Shown one piece after another: positions 101 to 30,771 of a DNA stretch of 64,000 nucleotides. The notes under the pieces were generated by a model that had not been told where the DNA came from, made no database searches, and saw only the letters and a program-made list of their open reading frames with translations. The translations under genes and the position numbers were made by a program. Position 1 is the first letter of the stretch. The number at the start of each line of letters is the position of its first letter. Location of the stretch: NCBI GenBank assembly GCA_965198235.1, contig OZ240248.1:1376001-1440000 (forward strand), in the 5' to 3' direction. The DNA is from Candidatus Poribacteria bacterium (GTDB lineage Bacteria > Poribacteria > WGA-4E > WGA-3G).

Positions 101-145
101 GAAATCCCAAATCCGCGTTGTTTAACCGCAAGGAAAATTAAAAAA
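101..145 (+). repeat. Family A repeat (...ACCGCAAGGAAAATTAAAA) abutting the sulfatase ATG
   Basis: Same 3' motif at 8641-8665, 23885-23963, 25301-25342, 29430-29490, 29516-29576. Confidence 0.85.
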
Positions 146-1513
146 ATGCCACAAAGTGATACAAATCAACCGAATGTCATCGTCTTTTTCACCGACCAGC
201 AACGGTGGGACACCTCCGGCTTGCACGGCAATCCACTCGACTTAATGCCCAACTTCGACCGGATGGCACAGCGTGGAACACATGTCCACCGCTCTTTTAC
301 ATGTCAACCCGTCTGCGGGCCCGCCCGCTCCTGTCTACAAACGGGATTATACGCAACTCGCACTGGATGCTTCCGAAACGGTATCCCACTATCCCCCAAC
401 CTCAAGACCCTCGCGCACCACTTCGGTGAGGCAGGCTACGCCACCGGATACATCGGGAAATGGCACCTCTATAGCGGCGGTACCGGTCCGGGACCTGTGC
501 CAGCTGAGCATCGCGGCGGGTATGACGACTGGTTAGCGTCCAACACCCTTGAATTTACTTCCGATGCGTATCAAACAACACTCTACAATAACGACAATCA
601 ACCCGTTGACCTCCCCGGCTATCGTGTGGATGCGCTCACGGATGCAGTGATACGTTACGTTGATCGGCGTAAGAGCGAACCTTTTTATCTCTTTACGTCT
701 TACATTGAACCGCATCACCAGAATCATCTGGACGATTATCCGCCGCCGGATGGGTATCGCGAACGATACGCTGGGAAATGGATACCCCCGGACCTCGCCG
801 CGCTCGGTGGTTCGACACATCAACACTTGGGGGGTTACTACGGTATGGTGAAAAGGCTGGACGAAGCACTCGGCAGACTGCTGGATGCGCTCAAGAGCCT
901 CCACCTGCTTGATAACACTGTCATCCTCTTCACCTCTGACCACGGGTGTCATTTCAAAACCCGCAACGGTGAATACAAACGCTCATGCCACGAGAGTTCC
1001 ATCCGTGTCCCGACGGCGTTCCACGGACCCGGATTCATCGGGGGTGGACAGATCCAAGAACTTGTGAGCCTTGTGGACCTCCCGCCGACGCTCCTTGATG
1101 CCGCTGGTTTGGAAGTACCGGGTGAGATGCAGGGCAAATCCATTCTGCCACTCCTACGTGGAGAAACGGATGACTGGCAAGAGGAGGTTTTCGTTCAAAT
1201 CAGTGAGGCGCAAGTCGGACGTGCCGTCCGAACCCAACGCTGGAAATACGGCGTGGATGCCCCGCATAAAAATGGGGGTGCAGATGCCGGGTCCGACCGG
1301 TATGTCGAGCAGTATCTTTATGACCTCCAAGCCGATCCCTACGAGTTACGGAACCTTATTGGATTGCAATCCCACGAAGTTGTCACAACGGTGATGCAGG
1401 AGCGACTCATTCGTCGGATGCTTGAGGCAGGTGAAGAGGCACCCACAATCGAACCTGCACCCACACAAAGAAGTGGACAACGCCGTGTCTCCGAAACAGA
1501 AGCAAGAAGTTGA
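146..1513 (+). CDS. Formylglycine-dependent sulfatase
   Basis: PNVIVFFTDQQR, CGPARS (CxPxR), GKWHL, SDHG motifs; start set at ATG 146 because the upstream ORF extension is repeat DNA. Confidence 0.93.
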   Translation: MPQSDTNQPNVIVFFTDQQRWDTSGLHGNPLDLMPNFDRMAQRGTHVHRSFTCQPVCGPARSCLQTGLYATRTGCFRNGIPLSPNLKTLAHHFGEAGYATGYIGKWHLYSGGTGPGPVPAEHRGGYDDWLASNTLEFTSDAYQTTLYNNDNQPVDLPGYRVDALTDAVIRYVDRRKSEPFYLFTSYIEPHHQNHLDDYPPPDGYRERYAGKWIPPDLAALGGSTHQHLGGYYGMVKRLDEALGRLLDALKSLHLLDNTVILFTSDHGCHFKTRNGEYKRSCHESSIRVPTAFHGPGFIGGGQIQELVSLVDLPPTLLDAAGLEVPGEMQGKSILPLLRGETDDWQEEVFVQISEAQVGRAVRTQRWKYGVDAPHKNGGADAGSDRYVEQYLYDLQADPYELRNLIGLQSHEVVTTVMQERLIRRMLEAGEEAPTIEPAPTQRSGQRRVSETEARS

Positions 1514-1518
1514 AGAAA

Positions 1519-1748
1519 GTCTGAACTGTGATTCTTGTGATTTAGTGATTGATATGATTATGGGTTCTTGATTTCGGAGAGTTGGTTCTCGTTTACAAGC
1601 GGGTTTTGTTAAACGAAACCTCGTGTATTGGTTATAAGTTGTAAATGAGGAGATATTCAGTCTACCCAAGAACTCTTAACTTATAACTTCCTTCAAGAGA
1701 AGTTGCCAATCACAGAAATCATATAATCACAGAAATCACAGTTCAGAC
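1519..1748. repeat. About 230 bp foldback element
   Basis: Terminal inverted repeat GTCTGAACTGTGATT / AATCACAGTTCAGAC, plus inner IR GTTATAAGTT / AACTTATAAC. Confidence 0.85.
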
Positions 1749-1769
1749 GGAAGGGTTAACATGGTAGAT

Positions 1770-1908
1770 AAACCCAAGTTACTACTAACAAATTTTGAAC
1801 GTTCCAATAAGGTTCTTCAAGCACTCTTGCCACCCCATAGGGGTGCTATGTCTATAGAAAACGGTGTATGGCAGAAACCGCACCCCATAGGGGTGCTATG
1901 TCTATAGA
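1770..1908. mobile_element. Family E MITE/REP-like element with two CACCCCATAGGGGTGCTATGTCTATAG units
   Basis: Colinear homolog at 27031-27188; single unit near 17241-17265. Confidence 0.8.
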
Positions 1909-1935
1909 ATTTAAGAATCTTGTACAGTGATGATC

Positions 1936-1989
1936 GGAAACCTGCGCGAAACGAAGTGGAGCGCAGCCCAGGAGCCCATAGTTAAAAAA
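1936..1989 (+). repeat. Family B hairpin repeat abutting ATG
   Basis: GAAAC-CTGCGC-GAAACGAAGTGGA-GCGCAG-CCCAGGAGCCCATAGTTAAAAAA; about 10 related copies in the window. Confidence 0.9.
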
Positions 1990-3135
1990 ATGAAAATTAC
2001 AGATGTCAAAACCCTTGTCATGGGGACCAGTTGGCGCAACCTAACGTTCGTGAAAGTTGAAACCGACGAAGGCTTAACCGGTGTCAGTGAAGTGCGGATG
2101 AACAACCGAACTGACGCACTCGTTGCCTATATCGATGGCGCGAAACGACGGCATGTCATCGGAAGCGATCCGTTCAACACCGAGGACCTCTACCAACGTC
2201 TGTTCCGCGACGATTATGGTCGCGCCGGTGAAATCGTTGCAACCGGTATCAGCGTTATTGAAATTGCATGCTGGGATATTGTCGGTAAAGCACTGAACCA
2301 ACCCGTCTACCGCTTACTCGGCGGAGCCTGCCGCGATAAAATCAAAGCGTATGCCAACGGGTGGTATCGTGTTGAACGCGCACCAGAGGAGTTTCATGCC
2401 GCCGCCAAAAGAGTGCTGGCAAAAGGCTACCGAGCCCTCAAGTTCGACCCCTTCGGTGCAGGCTATTATGAACTCTCTTATGAAGAGAAGTTGAAATCCG
2501 TTGAACTCGTCGAAGCCGTACGGGATGCCGTCGGACCTGATGTCGAAATTCTTGTTGAGATGCACGGTCGGTTTAGCCCGTATATGGCAATCGAAATTTC
2601 TGCAGAATTGGAGAAATTCCAACCGAGTTGGGTTGAAGAACCTGTGCCGCCCGACAACATCGCTGCACTCGCAAAAGCCGCTGAGAAGATTAACCTCCCC
2701 GTTGCCACAGGGGAACGGCTCCACAACAAGTATGAATACCGTGAATTGATTAACTTACAAGCCGCAGACATCCTGCAGCCCGACATTACCCAGACAGGCG
2801 GATTCTTAGAAACCAAGAAGATCGCGGCGATGGGCGATATGTGCTATATGACGGTAGCGCCCCACAACGTCGGTGGACCTGTCTCTACAGCGTCGGCTCT
2901 ACACTTTGCCGCAGGTACCACGAATTTCAAGATTCAGGAGCATTTCAACGATTTCTCTGAAGCGTGGGTTAAGGAGGCTGCCACCGGGTGCCCCGAAGTC
3001 ATTGACGGCTATTTTAGTCTGCCCAATGGACCGGGACTCGGTATGGAGTTGAATGAAGATCTCATCGCTGAACATCCTTATCGCGAAGGTTCATTCAACC
3101 TCTGGGAAGACGACTGGCACAAACGCGAATATTAG
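1990..3135 (+). CDS. Mandelate racemase/muconate lactonizing family enzyme (galactonate dehydratase-like)
   Basis: MKITDVK start, WDIVGK, KFDPF, EMHGR, WVEEP, ATGE, QPD motifs. Confidence 0.9.
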   Translation: MKITDVKTLVMGTSWRNLTFVKVETDEGLTGVSEVRMNNRTDALVAYIDGAKRRHVIGSDPFNTEDLYQRLFRDDYGRAGEIVATGISVIEIACWDIVGKALNQPVYRLLGGACRDKIKAYANGWYRVERAPEEFHAAAKRVLAKGYRALKFDPFGAGYYELSYEEKLKSVELVEAVRDAVGPDVEILVEMHGRFSPYMAIEISAELEKFQPSWVEEPVPPDNIAALAKAAEKINLPVATGERLHNKYEYRELINLQAADILQPDITQTGGFLETKKIAAMGDMCYMTVAPHNVGGPVSTASALHFAAGTTNFKIQEHFNDFSEAWVKEAATGCPEVIDGYFSLPNGPGLGMELNEDLIAEHPYREGSFNLWEDDWHKREY

Positions 3136-3137
3136 GT

Positions 3138-4659
<1,522 letters not shown>

Positions 4660-4754
4660 GGCACCCCCGGCCCGGTAGGTGCGGTTTTCTGCTTGTGGGA
4701 GGGGTGTTTTTGCTTGGGTGTTTCTCCCGGCTTACCGAATTATTTATTGAAACG

Positions 4755-5771: not shown

Positions 5772-5960
5772 AATCGTGTCTCCTCCTGCTAATGATGTAA
5801 TACCGTTTCTGATTGGAAATTTTTCAAGTAGAATTATTTTTTGCTTTACTATGTATACCGCGAATTCAAGAAAAAATCAACTGTTATTTCTTTCTCAGAA
5901 GTTATCAGTTTTCAGCAGAATAGCCATCAGCTGTCAGCCGTCGGTTCTCCGTCAGAAAGA

Positions 5961-5985: not shown

Positions 5986-6058
5986 AGCGAAGGACCTGCC
6001 AGTAGGAAATCGAAATTAAGGGAGAGCTGAATGCCTCTGACTCTTTTCTCAATTTCCC

Positions 6059-6087: not shown

Positions 6088-6093
6088 AATTTC

Positions 6094-8565: not shown

Positions 8566-8666
8566 AGACTGAACTAATAGATTGTGCTACAAAGATGACA
8601 ACTTGCGTTAGATAACCGAACGAAGCACTACCATCGCTTCAACGAACCGCAAGGTAAATCAAAAAT

Positions 8667-10550
8667 ATGCCGAAGATTAAAATACTCTCCGCAGATGTTG
8701 CCAATAAAATCGCCGCGGGCGAAGTTGTCGAACGTCCTGCATCAGTCGTCAAGGAACTCGTTGAAAACGCTATAGATGCAGGAGGCACCTCTATCCGCGT
8801 CGAAATTCGGGCAGGCGGGAAACGCCTCATCCGCGTGTCTGATAACGGTGCCGGTATGGAACGCGAGGACGCACTCCTCGCCTTGGAACGCCACGCGACG
8901 AGCAAAGTGAACGGTATTGAGGACCTTGAGTGTATTCAAACCTTTGGGTTCCGCGGCGAAGCTTTAGCAAGTATCGCCTCCGTTTCACAATGTGAGCTCC
9001 TCACCCGCACCGCTGACGCCCTTGAGGGAACAAAGGTGGACGTTGAGGGCGGCGTTTTCCGTTCTGTGAAAGAAAGCGGATGTTCCCCCGGCACCCACAT
9101 GTCGATTAACAACCTCTTTTACAATGTCCCCGCACGTCTGAAATTCCTCAAAACCGATACGACCGAAATGAACCATATCACGAATCAGGTGACATGGGCT
9201 GCACTCGCGCATCCGAAAATCCATTTTTCGCTGGCGCACAACGGCAGAGCGGTACTTGATGTCCGTTCCTGTGATTCATATCTCGAACGAGCACGCCTCC
9301 TCTACGGCAGAGAGTTCGCCGAAAACCTCATCGAATTTACAGAGGAGCTGCCTGACCTGAAGATGTACGGTTTGCTCGGTAAACCCGAATTTACGAAGCC
9401 GAATCGAGAATATCAACTCTTTTTCCTCAACCAGCGACCCATACGCAGCCGTATCATCGGCGCAGCATTGACAGAAGCACTCGACGCAATGGTTGCCAAA
9501 GACAGGCAACCTGTTGCGCTACTTTTCCTAACACTGGAACCCGAAACGGTCGATGTTAATGTGCATCCCGCCAAATTCGAGGTGCGCTTTCGCAACGAGC
9601 GGACGATTTATAGTGGGGTCGTCCGGATGCTTCGGGACGCTGTCCATAGAGCAAAATATATCCCCAAAATTGAGACCCCCATTGAACCGACGCAATCCAA
9701 GGGAGAGACTGAAGGTTCCCGTGATACCCCGCTATCACAACGGGTTTCCACACCGGGGTCCCCACCCGTTGCTGGGAGGGGGCAACGGACAACGCCTATT
9801 GCACAAGTGCATCGCAGGCAAACGTCTCCTGTCACGCCACAAGAGACAGAGAGCAGCGATCAGGAAACTATCAACACTTCGGAAGCGCAAACGCCGTCTA
9901 TCCCTACTGAAATCGTTGTACAGCCACCACAGCAGCGGATTCCTGATGATGCAAATCTCAGTCTGCTCGACTTTGAGAACGTCCAGCTCAAGACGAACCT
10001 CTTTAAAACCTACATTGTCGTCGAGTCGGGAGATAAAATCTTCTTCATCGACCAGCACGTCGCTGCTGAACGCGTCCTTTATGAACGTTTCGTCAACCAG
10101 GTGGAAACCGATGGAATTCCTGTGCAGGGGTTGCTACTGCCGGTAACTTTAGAAGTTACACCACAGCAGCTTGGAGTCCTCAAAATTCACGGCGATATCT
10201 TCAAGAAACTCGGCTTCGATCTGGACGAATTCGGTGGGAATACCATCCTAATTCGTGCGATTCCGTCGCCTTTACCAACCCGCGTCGCCGCGCAGACCGT
10301 CACCGATCTGCTTGACAAACTTCCCGAAGCACCACATACCGACGTACAAATCCCGGAGGCACTCGACAACGCCCTGATAACGCTCGCCTGCAAATCGGCT
10401 GTCAAAGCGGGGGACACATTGGATACGAAAGAGATGATCAACCTCATTAAGGAACTCTCCGAGGCGAAACTCCCGTTCAATTGTCCACACTCACGTCCTA
10501 TCATCGTCGAGATGGGGCGCGATGAATTGGAACGTCGATTCCACCGGTAA
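8667..10550 (+). CDS. mutL: DNA mismatch repair endonuclease MutL
   Basis: IAAGEVVERPASVVKELVENAIDA, GFRGEAL, DVNVHPAK, DQHVAAER, ACK, CPHSRP. Confidence 0.98.
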   Translation: MPKIKILSADVANKIAAGEVVERPASVVKELVENAIDAGGTSIRVEIRAGGKRLIRVSDNGAGMEREDALLALERHATSKVNGIEDLECIQTFGFRGEALASIASVSQCELLTRTADALEGTKVDVEGGVFRSVKESGCSPGTHMSINNLFYNVPARLKFLKTDTTEMNHITNQVTWAALAHPKIHFSLAHNGRAVLDVRSCDSYLERARLLYGREFAENLIEFTEELPDLKMYGLLGKPEFTKPNREYQLFFLNQRPIRSRIIGAALTEALDAMVAKDRQPVALLFLTLEPETVDVNVHPAKFEVRFRNERTIYSGVVRMLRDAVHRAKYIPKIETPIEPTQSKGETEGSRDTPLSQRVSTPGSPPVAGRGQRTTPIAQVHRRQTSPVTPQETESSDQETINTSEAQTPSIPTEIVVQPPQQRIPDDANLSLLDFENVQLKTNLFKTYIVVESGDKIFFIDQHVAAERVLYERFVNQVETDGIPVQGLLLPVTLEVTPQQLGVLKIHGDIFKKLGFDLDEFGGNTILIRAIPSPLPTRVAAQTVTDLLDKLPEAPHTDVQIPEALDNALITLACKSAVKAGDTLDTKEMINLIKELSEAKLPFNCPHSRPIIVEMGRDELERRFHR

Positions 10551-17129: not shown

Positions 17130-17324
17130 AATTCCCGCAGGTGGTTTTCTGAGAGCAAGGAGCCATTCTGATGAAACCGACCATTTCTCTTACAAATACC
17201 GGGGGATGTCAACAGTGATGGCGTGACTTCCGATCTTCAACCCCAGCGGGGTGATATGTCTATAGGGGAACAATGCCCGGGAGCCCATAGTTAAAAAATC
17301 GCAAAAGTTTGGAGAGTATATATC

Positions 17325-18335
17325 GTGTCAACAACACCGCGCGTCCGTGTCGCTTTCTATGGATGTGGGAACTTCGCGAACCGAACCCGCATCCCGAACC
17401 TATTACAGACAAATTCGGTGGATATTGTCGCTGCGTGCGATAGCAACTTACGGACGGCACAAGAAACAGCCGAACACTTCAAAATTCCGAGCGTCTACCA
17501 AGACGCACACGAAATGCTTGACACCGAAGCGATTGACGTGCTATACTCTATCGTACCGGCGTACGTACGAACCAATGTTGAATCGACTGCTGCAGAAAAG
17601 GGTATCCACATCTTCAGTGAGAAGCCACAGGCACTCACGATGCAGGTTGCCCACCGAATCAATAACGCCATTCAACAAGCAGGGGTTATCAGCACCGTTG
17701 GGTTTCGTGAACGGTATCGTCCGATCTTTCAAAAAGCTCGCCGATATTTGACGGACAAACATATCGTGCATGTCCGGTTTCAGAGTTTCGGGGGCTTACC
17801 GCCCTCAACAGACGGTGGACCCAAAACATGGTGGGAAGAGATGGACAAATCTGGGGGGAGTGCCCTCGATTGGGGGGTTCACGCAACCGATTATACACGA
17901 TTCATGACGGGATTGAACGTTGCCAAATCCCAAGCGTTTTATTGTGAACGCCCAGCTTACGCGAATGCTCTGTCTACCAGTTTCAATTACTGCTTTGAGA
18001 ACGGTGCTACGATGACACTCAACTTTGTCGCAGCCGGTCCGGGTCCGAAAACTGAACCGCGATTTACTATCTTCTATGAAGGCGGATGCCTCGAAATTCA
18101 CGGATACGATAGGATTATAGTGAATGGCGAGGTCCTTTACCAAGCCGACGAATTCGATCCGTGGTTGGAACAGGACAAAACCTTTATCCGCGCCCTTCAA
18201 TCTGGGGATGCAAGTCTTTTGCAAAGTGATTATTACGATGGGCTCTTCTCTTTAGCCCCTATTTTAGCAGGTTGGGAGTCTTCCCGCCGCGGCGGAGAGT
18301 GTATTGATGTCGCGGTGTTCATGGATGATGCATAA
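17325..18335 (+). CDS. Gfo/Idh/MocA family oxidoreductase
   Basis: GCGNFA, SEKP, DWGVHATD. Confidence 0.92.
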   Translation: MSTTPRVRVAFYGCGNFANRTRIPNLLQTNSVDIVAACDSNLRTAQETAEHFKIPSVYQDAHEMLDTEAIDVLYSIVPAYVRTNVESTAAEKGIHIFSEKPQALTMQVAHRINNAIQQAGVISTVGFRERYRPIFQKARRYLTDKHIVHVRFQSFGGLPPSTDGGPKTWWEEMDKSGGSALDWGVHATDYTRFMTGLNVAKSQAFYCERPAYANALSTSFNYCFENGATMTLNFVAAGPGPKTEPRFTIFYEGGCLEIHGYDRIIVNGEVLYQADEFDPWLEQDKTFIRALQSGDASLLQSDYYDGLFSLAPILAGWESSRRGGECIDVAVFMDDA

Positions 18336-18643: not shown

Positions 18644-18856
18644 GTTGAACTTCACCGAAAACCATCGTGGAGTGTTTTTCTAACTATGGAAATCTGGTCA
18701 CTGCTCCATTATATTCCTTGCCCCTTCCCAGTAACGGGTGGGGACCCCGGTTTTTGGTTAGTGCCAACACATCCCAGGGGTTCAAAGGTTTTTGACTTCA
18801 CCAGAAACCGTTGTGAAACGAAGTGGAACAACGCCCAGGAGCCCATAGTTAAAAAA
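18644..18856. repeat. Composite of family B arms (reverse 18675-18712, forward 18792-18856) around a family F REP (18718-18751)
   Basis: Arms match other B copies; F matches mutL 9752-9785 at 32/34 nt. Confidence 0.85.
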
Positions 18857-19984
18857 ATGATTAAAAAATGGCTTTTTACACCCGGTCCCACGCCGATTCC
18901 GCCTGAAGCGTTGTTGGCGATGGCACAACCGATTGATTACCACCGCAGCGATGCCACTGCAACGCTCATTAAAGACGTTCTTGAAAAACTCAAACACGTT
19001 TTCCAAACCGAGAATGATGTCCTCTTTCTAACATCATCTGGAACCGGTGCTATGGAAGGCGCAGTCGCCAATCTTTTATCTCGTGGCGACAAAGTCATTG
19101 TCATCCGAAGCGGTAAATTCGGGGAGCGGTGGAGCGACATCTGCACCGCTTACAGCATTGAAGTGATCCCGATTGACGTGACATGGGGGGATTCTGTTGA
19201 ACCACAGACAGTTGAGGCACTCTTGACGGAACACCCCGATGTGAAAGCCGTCTTTGCAACGCTCTGTGAGACATCGACGGGGGCTTTGCACGATATTGAG
19301 ACGTTGGCAGGTCTAACGCGAGTTCGTCCGACACTCTTGCTTGTTGATGCTGTCAGCGCGCTCGCTGCCGATGATTTACAGATGGATAATTGGGGGGTGG
19401 ACGTTGTTGTTTCCTGCTCCCAAAAAGGCTTAATGACACCGCCCGGTCTGGCGTTCGCTGCGCTCAATGAACGCGCATGGAACGCTGTTGCGTGTTCTGA
19501 CCTCCCAAAATACTATCTCGACTTCCGAAAAGCACATCAAAGCGGCTTAGAGGGTTCTGTACCCTACACACCGGCGGTAACGCTGCTGACGGCACTTCAA
19601 TGTGCCTTGAATCGCATCTGTACAGAAGGTATCCGCAATACCATCGCCCGTCACAGTCGCTTGGCAGTCGCGACCCGGAGTGCGGTTAAAGCACTGGGTC
19701 TCTCCCTCTTTGCAGCGTCTCCAGCGAATACTTTGACCGCTATCCACCTGCCAGCGGAAATTGATGGACAGGCGTTTATCAGTCTGATGCGCGACACATA
19801 CGGTATCACCTATGCCGGCGGTCAGAGTCAGTTAAGCGGAAAAATCGTCCGGATCGCACATCTCGGCTGGATGAATGAAAACGATGCTATCGTCGCCATT
19901 TCTGCCTTGGAGCGAGGTCTCTGCTCCATCGGATATGACGTTCCACTGGGTGCTGGCGTTACCGCTGCACAGGAAGTTTTTTAG
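18857..19984 (+). CDS. Class V aminotransferase (serine-pyruvate/alanine-glyoxylate family)
   Basis: LFTPGPT, SSGTGAME, ETSTG, VDAVS, SQKGLMTPPG. Confidence 0.93.
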   Translation: MIKKWLFTPGPTPIPPEALLAMAQPIDYHRSDATATLIKDVLEKLKHVFQTENDVLFLTSSGTGAMEGAVANLLSRGDKVIVIRSGKFGERWSDICTAYSIEVIPIDVTWGDSVEPQTVEALLTEHPDVKAVFATLCETSTGALHDIETLAGLTRVRPTLLLVDAVSALAADDLQMDNWGVDVVVSCSQKGLMTPPGLAFAALNERAWNAVACSDLPKYYLDFRKAHQSGLEGSVPYTPAVTLLTALQCALNRICTEGIRNTIARHSRLAVATRSAVKALGLSLFAASPANTLTAIHLPAEIDGQAFISLMRDTYGITYAGGQSQLSGKIVRIAHLGWMNENDAIVAISALERGLCSIGYDVPLGAGVTAAQEVF

Positions 19985-20167: not shown

Positions 20168-20232
20168 TTGAACTTCACCAAAAACCGCTGCGTAATGGAA
20201 TGGAGCAGCGACCAGATTTAATAGTTTAAAAA
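20168..20232 (+). repeat. Family B repeat abutting ATG
   Basis: CGCTGC-GTAATGGAATGGA-GCAGCG-ACCAGATTTAATAGTTTAAAA. Confidence 0.9.
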
Positions 20233-21507
20233 ATGGCTGAAACCACACTTTTTGACGCTTCTTACGAACACCGAAAAAAGCCGCTATTGACCCTAACACT
20301 GGAACGTTTGCGTCCCATCTATAGCAAGTCCGAATTGAACGCTTTACGTATTGACAGTATGAGTCGGGAGGGGTTAGCACAACGCTCTGGACGCGGATTC
20401 GTCAATCGGGATATTCTTGAAACCGTGCTTGGCAATTTACTGGAATGTGTCGCACCAGGATCCCATAATGCGCCGCAGCTGCATAACCAAAGGCGTGAAC
20501 TCTCGGAAGCGATTGAAGAGGTAGCAGACCAGTTGTATGCGATGGTAGCGCAATCGTTTTTGGCTGTTACAGATGAAACACGTCTCGGTGCTGCGCTTGA
20601 AACCGCTTTTTCGCTCCTCTGGGAACTACCACGGCTCAAAAGTCGAGCCCTCTGGAATCGCTTCGCCTCTCTTAAAGATCCGGCTGTCTGGGATGCCTAC
20701 CTTCTCCACACCGGTATCTCTCGCGAAAAACTCGCCGCGCTTGATTTCCGTTCCCAAATTGACACCGCAATTCAGGAGCGAACCTTTGAACCGTACCAAG
20801 ACTTCCTTGGTAGTTTGAATCTCGCCTCTGTTTTGGATTATCAACTCCAATTGGTAGGGAGTACGTATCCCGGTTGGCGTGTACTCTTTTACCACGATGT
20901 CGCACACGCTTTAACACGAAGCGATGACCTTGAGGAAAGTCCAAACATTCACAGAATCCCAGTTCCATTATTGCCGCGCGCCATCTCGGAACTCGGTGGA
21001 CGCTACTATCAAGCCGATTTACATCCAGAAACGCAGATAGGCGATGCCAATTTCTTGGAACACCCGCATCGCGGTGTAACCACCGGACAGACGGGCATCA
21101 TCGGTTCCGGGTGCGTTATTTATCCAAGCACGCTCGGTGGATTGAGTGTCAAGGTAAAACAACGGCATCCCGTCATCGGCGATTTTGTTGAAATCGGCAC
21201 GGACACCAGCCTGCTCGGACCTGTTCAGGTTTCTGACCATTCTACTGTCGGCACGAACACTGAAATTTATGGATTTGTTGAAATTGAACAACGGTGTCGC
21301 ATCGGTTCGTCAGTCGTCATCGGGACGATCCGCGGCGCGTCAGAGCATCCCGGAAAAATCTATATCGGAGATGAGGTGCGCATCGGAGATGGCACTATCA
21401 TTGAAAATACATCGGAAATGGACCTGATTATACCCAACCGCTCGCAGATCCCGGCGCGAAGCCATATCGCAAATGATGGGTTTGGATTCCCTCGATATGT
21501 TATGTAA
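20233..21507 (+). CDS. Left-handed beta-helix acyltransferase (serine O-acetyltransferase-like) with long N-terminal domain
   Basis: DLHPETQIG...EHPHRGV...TLGG...RHPVIGD and hexapeptide repeats. Confidence 0.75.
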   Translation: MAETTLFDASYEHRKKPLLTLTLERLRPIYSKSELNALRIDSMSREGLAQRSGRGFVNRDILETVLGNLLECVAPGSHNAPQLHNQRRELSEAIEEVADQLYAMVAQSFLAVTDETRLGAALETAFSLLWELPRLKSRALWNRFASLKDPAVWDAYLLHTGISREKLAALDFRSQIDTAIQERTFEPYQDFLGSLNLASVLDYQLQLVGSTYPGWRVLFYHDVAHALTRSDDLEESPNIHRIPVPLLPRAISELGGRYYQADLHPETQIGDANFLEHPHRGVTTGQTGIIGSGCVIYPSTLGGLSVKVKQRHPVIGDFVEIGTDTSLLGPVQVSDHSTVGTNTEIYGFVEIEQRCRIGSSVVIGTIRGASEHPGKIYIGDEVRIGDGTIIENTSEMDLIIPNRSQIPARSHIANDGFGFPRYVM

Positions 21508-23858: not shown

Positions 23859-23963
23859 CCCATGAAAACCAAACTGTTCAGCACGCAACAACGGCGCATG
23901 CGGAACTGATAGAAAACCTTTTTGGTAGAACGTTTTTATCGCGCGCAAGCAAAATTAAAAAAA

Positions 23964-25121
23964 ATGGCTACGACATTAACACTCCCACACACAATAATTA
24001 CAGGTGCAGGCGCATCCGAGAACGTCGGTGAACAGGCGAAACGACTCGGCGCAACGACCGCACTCATCGTGACCGATCCGGGTATCGCTGAAATCGGATA
24101 CGCCGACAAGATCGCCAAAAATTTGAATGATGCCGGGATAGCGTCCTCATGCTTCTCTGATGTCACACCCGACCCAACTCTACAGAACGTGCGAGACGGC
24201 TTAAAACAGCATGCTGACGAAGCCTGCGATGTAATCGTGAGCATCGGCGGCGGAAGTGCCATCGACTGCGGAAAAGGCATCGCCATGAAACTGACGAACG
24301 ACAGTGAATTCGCCGATTACATGGGTGTGGACAAGATCCCGAATCCGGGTGCACCCTTGATCGCGATACCAACGACAGGTGGGACAGGCAGTGAAGTCTC
24401 CAAAGTTACTGTCATCACCGACGATCTTCGATCTGTGAAGATGATGCTCAGTAGCCCATGCCTGTTGGCACACGTTGCACTGGTGGATCCGCTGCTATCC
24501 CTGACAACCCCACCCCACCTGACTGCAGCAGTCGGTGTTGATGCGTTGACGCACGCAATAGAGGCATATATCTCCAAACGCGCCCAACCGATAACCGATG
24601 CCCTCGCCTTGAAAGCCATCGAGATGATTTCCGGTTCGCTTCGGCAGGCGTGGGCAGACGGTGAAAACATCCCTGCCCGTACAGATATGATGATCGGTGC
24701 GTCTATCGCAGGCATGGCGTTCAGCAATTCATCTGTGGCTTTAGTTCACGGGATGTCTCGTCCAATCGGTGCGTTTTTCCACATCCATCATGGGCTATCG
24801 AATTCGGTGTTGTTGCGTGATGTGATGGAATTTAGCGTCGTCGGTGCACCTGCTCGTTTTGCCGATATTGCGTCCGCTATGGGCGAACCGATCGACGGGT
24901 TGTCCCCGATGGAGCAAGCGGACGCAGCGATTGATGCCGTGGAACGCCTTGTCACCGATATTCAGATGCCACGACTCGGTGAAATCGGTATTGACAGAGA
25001 GAAATTCGAGGATGTTATTGAACAGATGGCGAGGGACGCGATTGCGAGTGGAAGTCCTGCTAACAATCCGCGGCAAGCGACAGTTGAAGAGATTGTTGCA
25101 CTGTACCGTCAGTGTTTTTAG
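23964..25121 (+). CDS. Iron-containing alcohol dehydrogenase
   Basis: GGGSAID, PTTGGTGSE, DALTHAIEAY, HGMS, HG. Confidence 0.95.
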   Translation: MATTLTLPHTIITGAGASENVGEQAKRLGATTALIVTDPGIAEIGYADKIAKNLNDAGIASSCFSDVTPDPTLQNVRDGLKQHADEACDVIVSIGGGSAIDCGKGIAMKLTNDSEFADYMGVDKIPNPGAPLIAIPTTGGTGSEVSKVTVITDDLRSVKMMLSSPCLLAHVALVDPLLSLTTPPHLTAAVGVDALTHAIEAYISKRAQPITDALALKAIEMISGSLRQAWADGENIPARTDMMIGASIAGMAFSNSSVALVHGMSRPIGAFFHIHHGLSNSVLLRDVMEFSVVGAPARFADIASAMGEPIDGLSPMEQADAAIDAVERLVTDIQMPRLGEIGIDREKFEDVIEQMARDAIASGSPANNPRQATVEEIVALYRQCF

Positions 25122-25302
25122 AGAGTATTTTGTGGAAGGGGTTGTAACCTCGAGTTTGTGGAAGGGGAAACACCCAAGCAAAAAAACGGATTCCTTTATC
25201 CTGTAAATCCTGATTCAGGCAATTGACAGCTTGCTTCGCAGTGAGAACCAAAGCGCGCAGCTTGGAACAGAGTGGAAAGCGAATTTAAGAAAGAGACGTT
25301 AA

Positions 25303-25914
25303 ATGCCAAACCCATGTGCTTTAACCGCAAGGAAAATTAAAAGAACGTTTCTGTTGTGCCTATTGCTTGTGGGATGTGACACATCTATTGTGTCGATCCC
25401 CGATAGCAGGACGCCAATCTATTACGGCACAATTGATAACGTTGACAGTGTTTACGATGGCGACACGATTCGGGATGTATCTATCCAGATATATCCATTT
25501 CGTTCTCGGCTATCTAATATGGGTAAGGAACGATTGACACTATGGCCCGGCATTGAACGTCGTGTCGACGGGATTTATAGCATCACGGACATCAGGATCG
25601 CCGGAATAGACACACCTGAAAGACACCCGACACGCGCCGGACGCACCGAAGCCTCACTTCAACGGGAAAAAGAGCGTGCTGCAGCCGCAACGGACTTTCT
25701 CAAACAACTTCTACTTGAAAATAGTGAAGATGATGGTACCCTCGGATTTGTAATTCAGAATCCGCAGCCCGATAAATATGCAGGTCGCATCGTCGCCGAT
25801 GTCATTTGTGTCAAAGAGGACGTGTCTATTAATGCGGCTGAGGCGTTACTGAAAGCCGGACACGCTGTCGTCTATACCGGTGGCACGAAAACGCACGATT
25901 GGGGTGCCGAATAG
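25303..25914 (+). CDS. Thermonuclease (SNase-like) lipoprotein
   Basis: Lipobox LVGC; VYDGDT, IRIAGIDTPE, DKYAGRIVAD. Confidence 0.85.
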   Translation: MPNPCALTARKIKRTFLLCLLLVGCDTSIVSIPDSRTPIYYGTIDNVDSVYDGDTIRDVSIQIYPFRSRLSNMGKERLTLWPGIERRVDGIYSITDIRIAGIDTPERHPTRAGRTEASLQREKERAAAATDFLKQLLLENSEDDGTLGFVIQNPQPDKYAGRIVADVICVKEDVSINAAEALLKAGHAVVYTGGTKTHDWGAE

Positions 25915-25923
25915 GTAAAGTAT

Positions 25924-26976
25924 ATGAAAAAGAAAAACTTAATCAACCCCAAACCCAGTCACGATTTAACTGAGAACCCGATTTTGACAGCGGAAAAATC
26001 GGCGCGAAAACTTAATAGTTTAAAATACAAAATTGTTGTCCCCGGTGATTCACCACCGCAAATCCAAGGCTCGCCGCATCTGGAACGTCTGAAACCCTAT
26101 GGCGATGTCGTTCTTTATACTGACCGACCCGAAACTGACGCAGAGAAAATCCGCCGTGCTGAAGATGCAGATATCCTCATCAATTCACGCGGAATCGTCA
26201 AATGGCCCGCGGAAATCCTACACCAGCTCCCCGAGCTCAAGTTGATTTCGCTCTGCTCCATCGGCACCGATATGATTGGACTTGAGGAAGCGAAAAAGCG
26301 CGGAATTACCGTTTGCAATCAACCCGGACGTACCGCTCCAGTTGTAGCGGAACACGGGTTTGGACTGATGTTCGCGCTCGCTAAACGGGCGGCATTCCTG
26401 ACAACGTCTATGAAGGCGGGTGGATGGCCCCGTATGGACAATATTTACCTTCAAGGAAAAACTTTGGGAATTATAGGCACTGGGCATATCGGGGCAGAGA
26501 TGGCACGCCTTGGACGAGCCATCGGGATGAATGTTATCGCGTGGACGTATCACCCTTCAGCAGCGCGCGCAGCGGAATTGGGGGTTCAGTTTGTTTCTCT
26601 GGATGAACTGCTCCGAACTGCTGATGTTGTAAGTCTGCACGTCAGGCTGACAGAGGAGAGTCACCATCTCATTGGGGAACGTGAACTCGGTTTAATGAAG
26701 CAGGACGCGCTCCTAATCAATGTCGCACGTGGTGGGATGATTGATACAGATGCGTTGGTTGCTGCTTTGAACGGCGGACACCTCGGTGGTGCTGCTATTG
26801 ATGTCTATGATCAGGAACCGCCCCCGGCGAACCACCCTCTTTTGGAATGCGAGCAGGTAATTTTGACCCCACATTGTGCGGATATGACACCTGAAGGCGT
26901 TGAGCTTCTTAATGAGGGCGCCGTGGACAATATCATCGCTTTTTTGGAAGGCACACCACAGAACGTAGTTGTTTGA
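25924..26976 (+). CDS. D-2-hydroxyacid dehydrogenase family protein
   Basis: VAEH, GIIGTGHIG, INVARG, DVYDQEP, TPH. Confidence 0.93.
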   Translation: MKKKNLINPKPSHDLTENPILTAEKSARKLNSLKYKIVVPGDSPPQIQGSPHLERLKPYGDVVLYTDRPETDAEKIRRAEDADILINSRGIVKWPAEILHQLPELKLISLCSIGTDMIGLEEAKKRGITVCNQPGRTAPVVAEHGFGLMFALAKRAAFLTTSMKAGGWPRMDNIYLQGKTLGIIGTGHIGAEMARLGRAIGMNVIAWTYHPSAARAAELGVQFVSLDELLRTADVVSLHVRLTEESHHLIGERELGLMKQDALLINVARGGMIDTDALVAALNGGHLGGAAIDVYDQEPPPANHPLLECEQVILTPHCADMTPEGVELLNEGAVDNIIAFLEGTPQNVVV

Positions 26977-27030
26977 TTTTTTTTAACGGTTAGGGCTGGA
27001 CAGGGTGTCCTGCTCCACCTCGATCTAAAA

Positions 27031-27188
27031 TTACCCAAGTTGCTACTAACAAATCTTGGACGTTTCAACAAGGTTTTTCATGCACTTTCCCACCCCATAG
27101 GGGTGATATGTCTATAGAAAACGGTGTATTAAAGCGACTGCACCCCGTAGGGGTGCTATGTCTATAAATAGGTGGCAACTTGCGTTAA
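27031..27188. mobile_element. Family E MITE-like element
   Basis: Imperfect TIR TTACCCAAGTTGCTACTA / TAGGTGGCAACTTGCGTTAA; homologous to 1770-1908; solo ends near 8596, 10558, 15468. Confidence 0.8.
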
Positions 27189-27267
27189 AATTGGTAAAAA
27201 ACCGACTTTAAGGTATTAAGGGCTTTTTGACGAATGCCCAGAAAGAATCAGAACTCACCGGAAACCG

Positions 27268-29340
27268 ATGCGTAATGAAATGGAGCATCGACCAGATTTA
27301 ATAATTAAAAATATTGGGGTTGATACGGGTGGCACCTTCACCGACATTGTGATGCGTATTGATGGCGACCTGTTCACACACAAAGTCCTGTCTACGCCGC
27401 AGAATCCTGCCCTCGCTGTCCTACAAGGTGTGAGTGAAATCTTGCGTATGCACGACACCGATACCGAACGCTTGGACATTGTCCACGGATCGACGGTAGC
27501 AACGAACGCACTTCTTGAGCGTAGAGGTGCCCGTATCGCCCTCGTCACCACGAAAGATTTTGAGGACATTTTAGAGATAGGCAGACAGGCACGTCCGAAC
27601 CTCTATGATTTCTTCGTAGAGCGTCCCGCTCCGCTTGTCCCTGCGGATAGACGCTTCGGTATATCAGAACGGACACTGCACACAGGTGAAATCCAAACTG
27701 AGATTGAACCAAGCGATTTAGAGGCACTCGCGTCCGAACTCGCTACATTGGAACTTGATGCCATCGCGGTCTGTTTCCTCTTCGCCTACGTCAACCCACA
27801 GAACGAACAGATTGTTGCCGAGCACCTCGCCCGGCTTGATATACCCATCTCATGTTCACACGAAGTCTTACCGGAATATCGAGAGTATGCGCGTTTCAGC
27901 ACTACTGTCGCAAACGCGTATATCCGCCCTACTTTGGAACGGCATCTCTCTACGCTGACCGATTCTGAGCAGTTTCCAGCGTCTTTCCGTTTGATGCTCT
28001 CCAACGGAGGTTGTATCTCTGCAAGGAACTTTGAGTCTGCGGGTATCCGCACTGTCCTTTCCGGTCCTGCTGGTGGTGTTATGGGTGCGTATCAAGTCGC
28101 CAAGACCGCTGGCTACGACCAAATCATCACATTTGATATGGGTGGCACTTCAACGGATGTGAGCCTCTGCAATAGTGGTATCTCCCTCACGACCGAGAGC
28201 ACAATTAGTGGACTCCCGATCAAAGTTCCGTTGATTGATATTCATACCGTCGGTGCCGGGGGTGGTTCTATTGCGACTGTGGATGCAGGTGGCGCACTCC
28301 GCGTCGGACCCGAAAGTGCAGGGGCAGATCCAGGTCCCATCTGCTACGGAAACAATGGAGAAGATGTCACGGTAACCGACGCGAACCTTTACTTGGGACG
28401 TATCGCAGCGACCCAGTTTTTAGGGGGGGCGATGTCCCTTGACGCCGATAAGACCCGCACACACATTGAAGAATTTGCGAAGCGTCTTGGCGTTCCACCG
28501 TTGCAAGCAGCAGATGGCATTCTTAAGGTTGCCAACGCGGCGATGGAACGCGCCATCAAGGTCATCTCTGTGGAGCGCGGATTTGATACACGCGATTTCA
28601 CGCTCGTCTCCTTCGGTGGGGCTGGCGGTTTGCATGCCGCATTTATGGCAGAGAATCTCGGCATCAAAACAGTGCTGATCCCACCAAACGGCGGTTTGCT
28701 CTCTGCTTACGGGATGCTCTTCGCAGATGTCGTTAAAGATTATTCGCAGACCGTCTTGTGGCAATTTGAAAAGAGCAATGAAGATAACGCAAGTCTTGTT
28801 GAAGCGTTGAACGCCGGTTTTGACACACTCTTGACCCGTGCGGAGAATGAGATGAAAAGTGAGGGGTTCGTCCCGCATCAGCTTAAAATTGACCGTTCGC
28901 TTGATATGCGGTATGAGGGACAGTCTTATGAGTTGAATATTCCGTGTTTTACCGAGGAACATGCTCCTTCAACCGAGATAAAGGCTCTTGCTGAAAGATT
29001 TCACGCTGCGCATGGACTGCGGTTTGGTTATGCCCGGACCGATGCCCCAGTGGAGGTGGTGAACCTTCGACTTACAGCCACTGGAAAGACCGACAAACCT
29101 CCCATCCAATCAGTCCCATACACCGATACTGATGCCTCTGAAGCGTTTACTGTCCAAAACCGTGTTATCTTTGAAGGTGAAGCACACCCAACCGATTTCT
29201 ACCGCCGTGAGGCGTTGCGTCCCGGCAATCGAATCGCAGGTCCCGCGATTGTGACAGAATTTAGCGCGACGGCTGTAATACCCCCAAATTTCTCCGCCGT
29301 TGTTGATGCCTACCAGAATCTTATTTTGAAAAAAAAATAG
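27268..29340 (+). CDS. Hydantoinase A / 5-oxoprolinase subunit
   Basis: IGVDTGGTFTD, HGSTVATNALLE, SGPAGG, DMGGTSTD, GAGGGS. Confidence 0.95.
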   Translation: MRNEMEHRPDLIIKNIGVDTGGTFTDIVMRIDGDLFTHKVLSTPQNPALAVLQGVSEILRMHDTDTERLDIVHGSTVATNALLERRGARIALVTTKDFEDILEIGRQARPNLYDFFVERPAPLVPADRRFGISERTLHTGEIQTEIEPSDLEALASELATLELDAIAVCFLFAYVNPQNEQIVAEHLARLDIPISCSHEVLPEYREYARFSTTVANAYIRPTLERHLSTLTDSEQFPASFRLMLSNGGCISARNFESAGIRTVLSGPAGGVMGAYQVAKTAGYDQIITFDMGGTSTDVSLCNSGISLTTESTISGLPIKVPLIDIHTVGAGGGSIATVDAGGALRVGPESAGADPGPICYGNNGEDVTVTDANLYLGRIAATQFLGGAMSLDADKTRTHIEEFAKRLGVPPLQAADGILKVANAAMERAIKVISVERGFDTRDFTLVSFGGAGGLHAAFMAENLGIKTVLIPPNGGLLSAYGMLFADVVKDYSQTVLWQFEKSNEDNASLVEALNAGFDTLLTRAENEMKSEGFVPHQLKIDRSLDMRYEGQSYELNIPCFTEEHAPSTEIKALAERFHAAHGLRFGYARTDAPVEVVNLRLTATGKTDKPPIQSVPYTDTDASEAFTVQNRVIFEGEAHPTDFYRREALRPGNRIAGPAIVTEFSATAVIPPNFSAVVDAYQNLILKKK

Positions 29341-29356
29341 GGATGGGCAAATTCCT

Positions 29357-29385
29357 TTGACACGGCGCATTCCGTTTGATATACT
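29357..29385 (+). promoter_or_regulatory. Near-consensus sigma70 promoter
   Basis: TTGACA-17 nt-TATACT with TGn extension. Confidence 0.8.
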
Positions 29386-29429
29386 TTCAACACGAAATGG
29401 AGGGGTTTTTGCTTGGGCGTTTCTTTGAC

Positions 29430-29576
29430 TCTACGGGAAGGCACTCTATCTATCAAACCGCCCTAACCGAACCGCAAGGGAAAATTAAAAAGCCTGCAAC
29501 AACGGCGCAGGTGGGTCTACGGGAAGGCACTTTATCTATCAAACCGCCCTAACCGAACCGCAAGGAAAAATTAAAA
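29430..29576 (+). repeat. Two direct copies (61 bp, 2 mismatches) of family A
   Basis: 29430-29490 versus 29516-29576. Confidence 0.92.
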
Positions 29577-29577
29577 T

Positions 29578-30771
29578 ATGAAAATTACGGATGTAAAAAC
29601 AATTCTGACGGCACCCAACGGGACTCGGCTTGTTGTTGTTAAAATTGAAACGAGTGAACCCGGCTTATACGGAATCGGTTGTGCCACATTTACACAGCGT
29701 CCACTCGCTGTAGCAACCGCAGTCGATGAATATCTCAAGCCCTTTCTCATTGGGAAAGATCCGACGAACATAGAGGACATTTTCCAGACCAGTTTCGTCA
29801 GTTCCTATTGGCGGAATGGACCGGTCCTAAACAATGCCCTCAGCGGTGTAGACATCGCCTTGTGGGACATCATGGGCAAGCGTGCCAACATGCCTGTCTA
29901 CCAACTGCTCGGCGGTAAATGCCGAGACGCTGCGACGCTTTATGCGCACGCAGGCGGTGGCACTTTCGAGGAGGTAGAGGAGAGTATCCGCCGTTATATG
30001 GAGCAAGGCTATCGCTATGTCCGCGCACAGGTAGCAATACCGGGGTATTCGACTTACGGTGCAGGCGGTGGAAAGCGGAGTTCGCCTGCTTTTGAACCCA
30101 CTCCTTATGTCAATACCATCATCAAACTCTTCGATCATTTGCGGACGCATCTCGGCGACGAGGTGGAACTTCTCCACGACGTGCATGAGCGCATTCCGCC
30201 CATCCAAGCGATTAATCTCGCGAAAGGACTGGAACCGTATAACCTCTTCTTCCTTGAAGACCCGTTTGCACCCGAAGATGTCGACTATTTCCAACGAATG
30301 CGTCAACAGACGAGTATCCCGATTGCGATGGGTGAATTGTTCAACAACCCGAATGAGTACGTCCACCTTATCAAGGATCGGCTTATCGACTTTATCCGAG
30401 TGCATATCTCGCAAATCGGTGGTATCAGTCCTGCGCGTAAACTCGCCGCGTTCTGTGAATTCTTCGGTGTACGCACTGCATGGCACGGTCCTGGCGATGT
30501 TTCTCCAGTTGGGCATGCCGCCAATGTGGCACTGGATCTCGCGTGCTATAACTTCGGTATTCAGGAGCAGCATGTCTTCGGTGAAAATACCAAAGAGGTC
30601 TTCCCCGGTTGTCCCGAAATTCGAGATGGCTGTTTTTGGGTAAATGAGGCACCGGGACTCGGTATTGATTTAGATGAGGAACTCGCGGCACGATTCCCAT
30701 TTCCGGAGGATCCACTCAACGGCAGCTGGGCACCAGTGCGGCGAATGGACGGCACGGTTATCCGACCTTAG
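29578..30771 (+). CDS. RspA/mannonate dehydratase-like enolase superfamily enzyme
   Basis: SSYWRNGPV, LHDVHER, FLEDP, AMGE, AWHGPGD. Confidence 0.92.
   Translation: MKITDVKTILTAPNGTRLVVVKIETSEPGLYGIGCATFTQRPLAVATAVDEYLKPFLIGKDPTNIEDIFQTSFVSSYWRNGPVLNNALSGVDIALWDIMGKRANMPVYQLLGGKCRDAATLYAHAGGGTFEEVEESIRRYMEQGYRYVRAQVAIPGYSTYGAGGGKRSSPAFEPTPYVNTIIKLFDHLRTHLGDEVELLHDVHERIPPIQAINLAKGLEPYNLFFLEDPFAPEDVDYFQRMRQQTSIPIAMGELFNNPNEYVHLIKDRLIDFIRVHISQIGGISPARKLAAFCEFFGVRTAWHGPGDVSPVGHAANVALDLACYNFGIQEQHVFGENTKEVFPGCPEIRDGCFWVNEAPGLGIDLDEELAARFPFPEDPLNGSWAPVRRMDGTVIRP

Follow-up and report, generated by a model that had tools for sequence, protein, structure and literature searches.

The described class closest to the repeats reported here appears to be Neisseria REP2 (CREN), together with similar inverted repeat (IR) sequences of Borrelia plasmids; they are likened by description, not by sequence. 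Our repeats, families A and B, were noticed in a window of 64,000 nucleotides of DNA from a Candidatus Poribacteria bacterium (positions 1,376,001-1,440,000 of contig OZ240248.1), where short sequences ending in TTAAAA stand directly before the start codons of unrelated genes. Sponge symbionts are the source of the metagenome-assembled genomes of Candidatus Poribacteria. The analysis presented here indicates that A and B are a real, genome-wide and genus-specific repeat system.

In the account of Delihas (2011, PMC3184786) REP2 elements are 120-150 bp long, occur in 23-26 copies, have no terminal inverted repeats (TIRs) and contain two stem-loops near the 5' end. The same account places them directly upstream of unrelated open reading frames (ORFs), where they carry a promoter, a ribosome binding site and the ATG, with 14 genes being co-regulated; it describes their origin and mode of spread as unknown (PMC3184786). 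Judged by this outline, A and B resemble REP2 in being intergenic, in having no TIRs, in their sense orientation directly upstream of unrelated ORFs, in the 5' stem-loop and in carrying the 5' untranslated region (UTR) and translation-start region. They are unlike REP2 in that the unit does not include the ATG and has no Shine-Dalgarno (SD) sequence at normal spacing. They are also about ten times more abundant, with hundreds of copies in several families that have only the tail in common, and many copies abut stop codons in antisense or occur as doublets.

Other known repeats share part of this description. The GTAG rule and the RAYT (REP-associated tyrosine transposase) rule for repetitive extragenic palindromic (REP) elements are part of the general literature. 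A and B partly resemble REPs and REPINs in their short GC-rich hairpins, in the GTAG just 5' of the hairpin (most copies of family A, not B), in their inverted doublets (34) and in their hundreds of intergenic copies. Unlike these elements they have no cognate RAYT, since the RAYT-like genes of this genome are flanked by another repeat (..GGGGTGCTATGTCTATAG); moreover, their body is long and non-palindromic, and their tail is polar and docks on coding boundaries. To our knowledge, REPs do not dock a polar tail in this way. Miniature inverted-repeat transposable elements (MITEs) such as the Correia element CREE, ERIC and RUP are presented in the same source as intergenic, non-autonomous, co-transcribed with their neighbors and often located 5' of genes; they can carry promoters or terminators and fold into long hairpins (PMC3184786). 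A and B are likewise non-autonomous intergenic repeats that often lie 5' of genes, but the solo units have no TIR, and neither a target duplication nor a parent insertion sequence (IS) was found. We know of no MITE for which flush docking on start or stop codons has been described. Mycobacterial interspersed repetitive units (MIRUs) are 40-100 bp units between operon genes, in the same orientation and often in tandem, whose small ORFs overlap the flanking stop and start codons and mediate translational coupling. A and B are also intercistronic and in the same orientation (164/181 co-directional, with empty sites that are often junctions of 0-20 nt), but unlike MIRUs they carry stop codons in their tails as well as a hairpin. 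A search by title and abstract for intergenic repeats in Poribacteria, supplements aside, found no description of A or B.

Anatomy and docking of families A and B

The genome under study (G000) comprises 5.17 Mb in two contigs, with 48% G+C and 96% completeness. A simple codon-bias ORF caller produced 4008 genes (86% coding). The sequence ACCGCAAGG occurs 249 times on contig 1, as compared to about 39 times expected by chance (a figure obtained by hand arithmetic). A search with nhmmer found 242 A copies, and the 13-nt hairpin loop is present 352 times.

Both families are modular repeats of 60-100 nt. A unit consists of a hairpin, whose 13-nt loop is conserved, of a body that differs between the families and of a common tail. 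The 5-6 bp stem covaries between subfamilies, and the loop reads G(A/T)AA(C/T)GNA(A/G)TGGA or AACAACGGC. The A unit of about 95 nt consists of GTAG, which is found 5' of the hairpin in most copies, a short hairpin, the body CGGATATACGG...CTGACCGAACCGCAAGG (also written CGGATATACGG...CCAAACCCACCTGACCGAACCGCAAGG) and the tail. Family B, with GAAACC in the place of GTAG, has the order GGAATTAACCGAAAACC, the same type of hairpin, CCCAGGAGCCCATAG or variants, and the same tail. This common tail is (T/A)A(T/A)A(A/G)TTAAAA(A)n, which in A takes the form (T/A)A(T/A)AATTAAAA(A)n. In diverged copies invariant blocks (the loop, CGAACCGCAAGG and the tail) adjoin highly variable stretches.

The hairpin is well defined. 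The first five pairs flanking the 13-nt loop are Watson-Crick in 82% of cases versus 23-27% after a shift of the 3' partner by one or two positions, and several pair types occur at each stem position. Two pairs switch between C-G and U-A among 33 A copies from many species. No supported structure beyond this hairpin was obtained for A with RNAalifold, which gave -1.1 kcal/mol and a trivial 2-bp element. Long-range helices in the A body were discarded on the same grounds and because the proposed pairs never vary. The idea that the ATG is part of the unit was also abandoned: in copies docked neither at a start nor at a stop, only 17 of 133 have TG after the A-run.

The docking of the tails was examined with two sets of copies. 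The A-tail set (n = 234) contains each A core followed by a tail-like run, and the B-tail set (n = 178) each 13-nt loop that has no following A core and a tail not more than 50 nt away. A tail was defined as flush when it ends -1 to 2 nt from the in-frame start of a called gene. Flush tails are found at starts in 104/234 (A) and 49/178 (B) copies; 121/234 and 60/178, respectively, end within -1 to 12 nt of an in-frame start. The null comprised every A-run of at least 4 that is non-coding or flush. This null is generous, being inflated by internal in-frame ATGs, and yields 14.6% flush. The observed excess has binomial p values of 6e-28 for A and 6e-6 for B; the accumulation at start codons thus goes beyond the placement of A-tracts, as the initial annotation had supposed. 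A conservative count gives 220 of the 4008 genes a flush TTAAAA-like tail together with a repeat-covered upstream region.

The 181 start-docked genes begin with ATG (151), TTG (17) or GTG (13). Their upstream neighbor is co-directional in 164 cases, versus 78% genome-wide, and the median gap is about 200 nt. Tails also face the stop codon that ends a gene on the opposite strand (A 36/234, B 62/178). In about half of these cases the stop codon is the TAA that results when the tail's own TTA is read on the other strand (offsets of -8 to -6). Moreover, 34 hairpin pairs less than 150 nt apart (of the 352 hairpins) form tails-out doublets, typically 83-87 nt from loop to loop; such a doublet often fills the whole intergenic gap in the order stop codon, reverse-complement module, sense module, start codon. 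There are also 28 inward-facing hairpin pairs, each of which encloses one to three genes.

The tail is followed by another module, as in an array, in 24/234 A and 5/178 B copies. Tandem arrays of 2-4 A units with periods of 85-122 nt were seen on contig 1 (C1) at 1204242-1204480, 1487516-1487720, 3359727-3360110 and 1455224-1455500. In some of them the repeated unit takes in the first codons of the downstream gene, which indicates local duplication as well as insertion. TTAAAA-type runs outside the two sets are often docked too (473 at starts and 250 at stops, of 3649), and we conclude that more families exist. Approximately 37% of intergenic bases have a match in one or more other intergenic segments, and about 23% in at least five.

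The copies in the window are as follows.

81..145, plus strand: family A, variant with ...GTTGTTTAACCGCAAGG; flush with the ATG of a sulfatase gene at 146 (Pfam).
1935..1989, plus strand: family B, made up of CGGAAACC, a 6-bp hairpin with loop GAAACGAAGTGGA, CCCAGGAGCCCATAG and tail; flush with the ATG at 1990 of a gene for an enolase-superfamily dehydratase (Pfam).
8610..8666, plus strand: family A, 5'-degenerate and clear from 8637 (CTTCAACGAACCGCAAGGTAAATCAAAAAT); its tail, a variant reading ...AAATCAAAAAT, ends flush with the ATG of mutL at 8667.
17267..17298, plus strand: 3' remnant of B (GGAACAATGCCCGGGAGCCCATAG and tail) beside a REP-type hairpin; not flush, 26 nt before the GTG at 17325 with GGAG in between.
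18675..18856, no single strand: tails-out doublet, with reverse-complement B on the left (T-run, CTATGG..., loop TCCATTAT..., nested insertion) and sense B on the right (18792-18856), the latter flush with the ATG of a class-V aminotransferase gene at 18857.
20168..20232, plus strand: family B, loop GTAATGGAATGGA; flush with the ATG at 20233 of a gene for a hexapeptide-repeat protein; the junction measures 4 nt in relative G004.
23881..23963, plus strand: degenerate A-like copy with hairpin loop AACAACGGC, diverged body and CGCGCAAGCAAAATTAAAAAAA; flush with the ATG of an iron-containing alcohol dehydrogenase gene at 23964.
25253..25342, plus strand: family A, in frame inside the longest ORF from 25303 (SNase-like protein); the tail region is followed by ACG, which is not a start codon.
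25962..26025, plus strand: B variant with loop TTGACAGCGGAAAAA and tail CTTAATAGTTTAAAA, in the N-terminal extension of the ORF from 25924, whose Pfam domain begins only at residue 53.
27251..27311, plus strand: family B, inside the ORF from 27268 (hydantoinase A); the stem of the hairpin contains the ATG, and residue 16, directly after the tail, is the first of the Pfam N-terminal domain.
29394..29491, plus strand: first tandem A (loop remnant, GGGTTTTTGCTTGGG module, body, tail), downstream of a sigma-70-like promoter at 29357-29385.
29492..29577, plus strand: second tandem A (hairpin loop AACAACGGC, body, tail); flush with the ATG at 29578 of a second enolase-superfamily gene (Pfam).
42442..42585, no single strand: tails-out doublet separating two minus-strand genes; the distance is 2 nt from the left tail to the TTG start of ORF 40910-42439 and 5 nt from the right tail to the stop codon of ORF 42591-46412.

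Pfam supports the identities given for these genes, and a 2-hydroxyacid dehydrogenase is also among them. The seven copies that had been reported to end 0-2 nt before an ATG (146, 1990, 8667, 18857, 20233, 23964 and 29578) all have their tail at 0 nt, and the in-frame copies in the ORFs from 25303 (A), 25924 (B variant) and 27268 (B) exist as described. Two further claims were correct in part. All copies had been called sense. This is true of the copies then listed, while genome-wide and at 42442-42585 tails face stop codons of the opposite strand. A fixed 3' end and a variable 5' end had also been proposed. Among the 227 A hits that reach the 3' end 202 contain the 5' hairpin as well, and the variation 5' of A consists mainly of filler and other upstream modules.

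The three ORFs with in-frame copies have a practical consequence: gene callers will over-extend ORFs into elements and misplace start codons, as at 25303, 25924 and 27268. In two of them the in-frame codon beside the tail is near-cognate, namely ACG in the ORF from 25303 (25343-25348) and ATT in the ORF from 27268 (27312-27317), and both ORFs extend to an ATG within the element. This means either loss of the start codon, with the ATG of the element in its place, or initiation at a non-canonical codon.

Gain, loss and exchange among related genomes

The A tail, allowing at most one mismatch, is present in all 24 other sampled species of the genus with 3-353 copies per genome (117 in G000). It was found in only one of 16 genomes from three other families of the order, as a single match; a reversed control pattern gave 0 matches everywhere. 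The hairpin loop is enriched in this genus only. In this comparison 18 of 20 other members contain 18-217 copies and G000 contains 290, while the number is near background in G052 (3) and G016 (5); other genera have 0-12, as does the control. When database entries with repeat-bearing loci were inspected, 78 of the 80 matches listed were titled Poribacteria and 2 'uncultured bacterium'. The earlier view of a non-autonomous element is supported; the elements are restricted to the genus, and their copy number varies widely (3-353 A tails per genome).

Next to the distribution we considered the turnover at orthologous genes. Sixty genes with a docked A in other species were compared with their G000 orthologues (75-94% nucleotide identity), and in 58 cases the alignment extends to the start codon. 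A loose motif test detects A in G000 at 16 of these 58 (at least one of them, L032, is a chance match) and not at the other 42. Several of the 42 orthologues without A carry B, and many have an ordinary SD leader. The homology between orthologous loci breaks at the ATG. In seven clean insertions upstream homology resumes at -1 to -10 in G000 and at -105 to -455 in the relative, so that 104-452 nt of elements are located exactly between the upstream stop codon and the downstream ATG. Taking all repeat families together, 47 junctions are filled in the relative and not more than 20 nt long in G000, and 63 show the reverse. The empty sites anticipated in relatives therefore exist, and the same start codon can carry A, B, a B variant or an SD leader.

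This exchange is evident from the comparison of ten syntenic relatives at orthologous start codons:

Aminotransferase start: B in G000; an A variant in G024; a B variant in G006 and G007; nothing in G004, G046 and G056.
mutL start: A in six genomes (G000, G004, G014, G018, G046, G051); tail only in three (G006, G024, G056); B variants in two (G007, G008).
Aminotransferase-hexapeptide junction: TAA-AAAA-ATG in G004 (4 nt); 16 nt in G056, 54 nt in G046, 171 nt in G007, 248 nt in G000 and 277 nt in G006.

The A copy before the sulfatase gene has an orthologous copy in G018 and G056 and is replaced by an SD-type leader in G006 and G014. Copies that are clearly orthologous are approximately as conserved as the adjacent coding DNA (96.9% over 96 nt versus 92.3%, and 88.4% over 292 nt versus 88.5%).

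A separate rearrangement was observed at the sulfatase-dehydratase junction of G004 (L147). Here the dehydratase gene has a duplicate of its leader and of its first ~47 nt; the duplicates lie about 0.8 kb apart, and the spacer encodes a repetitive (KTEIATVKQEL)n-like ORF. A gene has thus entered along with a second copy of the start region.

The initial annotation had suggested that the elements target A-rich start regions. This is not supported. The empty sites are mostly operon junctions of 0-20 nt without a common motif, and tails also dock on antisense stop codons. The docking on stop codons implies that a mechanism specific for start codons is insufficient, and an exclusive sense orientation is not supported either.

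Proposed leader function and rival explanations

The 3' end of the 16S rRNA carries a canonical anti-SD sequence, and G enrichment peaks at -10/-9 before first ATGs genome-wide; both findings together indicate that the organism uses SD pairing. A core SD inside -14 to -5 occurs in 6 of 104 genes with flush A and in 0 of 49 with flush B, as compared to 1372 of 3708 other called genes. Many B variants do not contain any GGA near the start. In all six copies that were folded the tail and the start codon are unpaired. These data suggest that the sense module is a portable A-rich, SD-poor leader for translation initiation. The replacement leader of the initial annotation is in line with ortholog presence and absence and with the loss of the SD in flush genes. 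Family A carries AGGA at -15 to -12 only. The antisense module, in which a hairpin is followed by GGTTTTCGGTT, may serve as a 3' stem-loop or a weak terminator.

The units have multiplied to hundreds of copies, have been gained, lost or exchanged between sister species, and are located between coding regions, the tail ending flush at the coding boundary. The explanation of the whole that we lean to, with somewhat more belief than doubt, is that A and B form one genus-specific superfamily of short non-autonomous modular interspersed repeats that supply leaders. A sense unit would become the leader of its gene, with an unpaired A-rich stretch in place of the native SD spacer; such a leader would be needed wherever a tight operon junction is split by an insertion. 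Translation of at least 150-220 genes would then begin in an SD-poor region that belongs to a repeat, in most cases where co-directional genes adjoin. An antisense tail would abut, or even supply, the stop codon of the neighbor, and tails-out doublets would punctuate gene pairs in the order stop, 3' hairpin, leader, start. The docking itself could originate when units insert or recombine into intercistronic spacers of very small size and selection favors the orientation in which the downstream gene can still be translated. It may thus reflect selection in tiny spacers, where only very short intercistronic targets are tolerated.

In a bolder version, which we regard as rather doubtful, a system for integration or recombination would seek out boundaries and place a portable module precisely at the codon with which an ORF begins or ends. 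The modules would then be 'punctuation cassettes' of a 3' hairpin and an SD-independent leader, swapped between genes and species and possibly read by one factor through the 13-nt loop. Such a mobile system would rewrite initiation regions throughout the genome, whereas under the opposite view the copies would be passive junk that selection has filtered. Three features give a preference of the tail end for boundaries a modest probability: the polarity of the units, with a flush tail and a variable 5' side, the fact that stop codons are docked too, and the presence of different families at the same start codon.

If A and B do supply leaders in this way, a sponge symbiont that is widespread and uncultured would translate at least 4-5% of its genes from an exchangeable repeat-borne SD-poor leader. 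The same start codon combined with A, B, the tail alone or a native SD in different species would be a natural experiment on leader sequence and SD-independent initiation. The small REP2 class of Neisseria would be extended to a much larger system, which the approximately 40 related genomes in the genus make better analyzable, and flush docking on start and stop codons would pose a mechanistic question that is open to population metagenomes.

Several results weigh against the view of A and B as mobile leader-supplying repeats. The role of the leaders in translation is putative. The gene calls come from a crude ORF caller, and the docking counts therefore carry error; 53/234 A and 51/178 B copies are neither docked nor in arrays. 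The dispersed copies in G000 are diverged, with a best identity to a distant copy (ungapped comparison) of 0.79-0.82 in the median and 0.90-0.95 at maximum. This divergence suggests that there was no recent burst in G000; species with more than 300 copies may be more informative. Stem mismatches of the G:T type (43) and the A:C type (48) are equally frequent, and single modules fold no better than shuffles, so that neither comparison gives a sign of RNA-level selection on the hairpin. Contigs from metatranscriptomes bridge the elements without showing transcript starts. No target-site duplication was detected in 13 pairs of filled and empty sites, in which 8-25% coding divergence makes short spacers unreliable. 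As to a possible enzyme, none of 24 Y1_Tnp loci in six genomes of the genus is flanked by A or B, while five are flanked by a TATGTCTATAG-type REP. No match to the reverse transcriptase domain RVT_1 was found, and a search for Y2 rolling-circle transposases also gave no match but is uninformative, because the control genomes were silent too.

An alternative that we consider unlikely, although it is compatible with a mobile origin, is a regulon signal. In this scheme the copies are cis-regulatory leaders, in which the loop or the A body binds one regulator (protein or RNA) that controls hundreds of genes, and they are kept for that control. The invariant blocks beside highly variable stretches are consistent with such a function, and so is the conservation of orthologous copies at about the level of coding DNA (96.9% vs 92.3%; 88.4% vs 88.5%), although the copies were found by the same motifs and the conservation is therefore partly a matter of ascertainment. 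A precedent exists in the 14 co-regulated genes reported for Neisseria REP2 (PMC3184786). However, the genes downstream of A and B have no common pathway, sister species have different families or none at the same gene, and a leader signal has no role in the many copies that face stop codons. No candidate binder was found. In particular, CsrA-type control through GGA-containing loops was rejected, since the 96%-complete genome has no CsrA gene (PF02599).

Somewhat less probable still is the idea that the units are portable promoters, with the tail acting as a -10 box and transcription beginning at the start codon. GG is found at -14 in 77 of 104 flush A copies, which places (T/A)A(T/A)AAT at -12 to -7 from the A of the ATG; the B tails have CATAGT or AATAGT at a similar distance. 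The geometry of the -10 box in leaderless mRNAs is a textbook rule. The predominance of ATG among the docked starts (151/181) and the missing SD at normal spacing agree with leaderless transcripts, and canonical TTGACA/TATAAT-type promoters do occur in the genome, including one non-repeat gene with TATAAT-N6-ATG. On the other hand, the -10-like hexamer of A has no -35 in common: at 16-18 nt A has CCCACC and B has GTGGAG. The docked starts include 17 TTG and 13 GTG codons, and 91% of the docked genes lie behind a co-directional gene, often at what was formerly an operon junction of 0-20 nt. A consensus promoter scan flagged none inside the copies of the window and one upstream of the A tandem. 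This is the sigma-70-like promoter at 29357-29385, which consists of TTGACA, a spacer of 17 nt and TATACT with TG and is conserved in G056. Its position upstream of the tandem copies indicates that A is part of the 5' UTR there. We also considered this promoter as a repeat-borne one and rejected that, since the sequence is single copy. RNA contigs run across the elements, although carry-over of DNA is possible. These contigs, from the metatranscriptomes X1-X4 and in assembled form only, cover the region and cross the elements; starts, strand and level are not resolvable from them, and repeat-induced chimeric joints dominate.

A structured cis-regulatory RNA kept by descent, that is, a riboswitch or another leader of a known or new class, is very improbable and can be considered largely refuted. 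The covarying hairpin, the sense orientation and the position in 5' leaders do recall such RNAs, but the RNAalifold consensus contains only the trivial 2-bp element, the long-range helices never vary, and the stems exhibit no G.U asymmetry. Rfam gave 0 matches at the gathering score over the 64 kb; at E up to 10 over positions 1-30000 it gave three unrelated weak matches and none for A or B. The genes are unrelated, the families are present, absent or swapped at orthologous positions, and many copies are antisense to the neighbor gene. The earlier rejection of a metabolite riboswitch consequently stands. Finally, a compositional artefact, in which A-rich start contexts are merely alike, is refuted: TTAAAAAA is the commonest 8-mer before first ATGs, but the similarity extends 60-100 nt upstream and includes hairpins, the reversed control pattern has 0 matches, and the docking exceeds the inflated A-run null (p = 6e-28).

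Candidate enzymes and neighboring repeats

The genome encodes six Y1 (HUH) transposases. Three are IS200/IS605-like (C1 119838, 4381488 and 4792784), each with a Y1 tnpA followed by a second ORF, and two of these are near-identical. The other three are RAYT-like genes near C1 606918, 1898775 and 3853757, which are flanked by inverted copies of a separate REP (..GGGGTGCTATGTCTATAG) with the hairpin GCACCCC-ATAG/GTAG-GGGGTGC followed by TATGTCTATAG. This REP and the RAYT-like genes are a classical REP/RAYT system that exists beside A and B. Its copies in the window are:

1830-1857: separate REP family.
1880-1907: separate REP family.
~17241-17266: separate REP family.
~27120-27175: separate REP family.

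The transposase, HUH nuclease or reverse transcriptase gene flanked by the same ends, which the initial annotation had envisaged, was not found among the Y1 loci or with RVT_1; the Y2 search had a silent control. Y1 or RAYT proteins were rejected as the cognate enzyme, since their flanks do not contain A or B and the Y1 counts (2-6) do not track the A copies (117-353) in six genomes. Retro-copying from the fixed 3' end was discarded as well, since RVT_1 is missing and most A copies are full length. A duplication of a TTAA target fits two junctions (L096 and aminotransferase-hexapeptide) and fails at L050 and L098.

An insertion of a different kind was seen at L064. A relative contains 2.46 kb that are absent from G000 at C1 4748512, where the site lies inside an A-run, and the insertion includes an ORF that resembles a transposase and, fused with it or adjacent, one that resembles a DNA methyltransferase.

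When the doublet at 18675-18856 was folded, the left tail paired with the right tail and UAAAAAAAUG stayed open (z -2.2). The loops of the 13-nt-loop hairpins also host insertions of other short repeats, e.g. ATGCCTTAAATGGCATAATTTGTCTTTGCTTTACATT and TTGTCCCG..AAGCC.. units, which split the loop into GTAATGAAAT and TGGAG halves; this was observed at L098, at locus L143 of G006 and at 18720-18750 of the window.

Additional intergenic repeats accompany A and B. Among them are tandem units of GGGTTTTTGCTTGGG(T)GTTTC, units of the CTGATAACTGATAAC type with AAGAGGTTTTCGTTAAAC, hairpins of CCGGTAGGTGCGGTTTCCTAACCGCACC, one hairpin of the form TTAACCATCAACTCG...CGAGTTGATGGTTAAC and a ...TTTAACGCCTTGCGAATAATTAAAAAA family with an A/B-like tail. 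Such repeats were seen in the window at 1-45 and 29404-29425 and at many orthologous loci.

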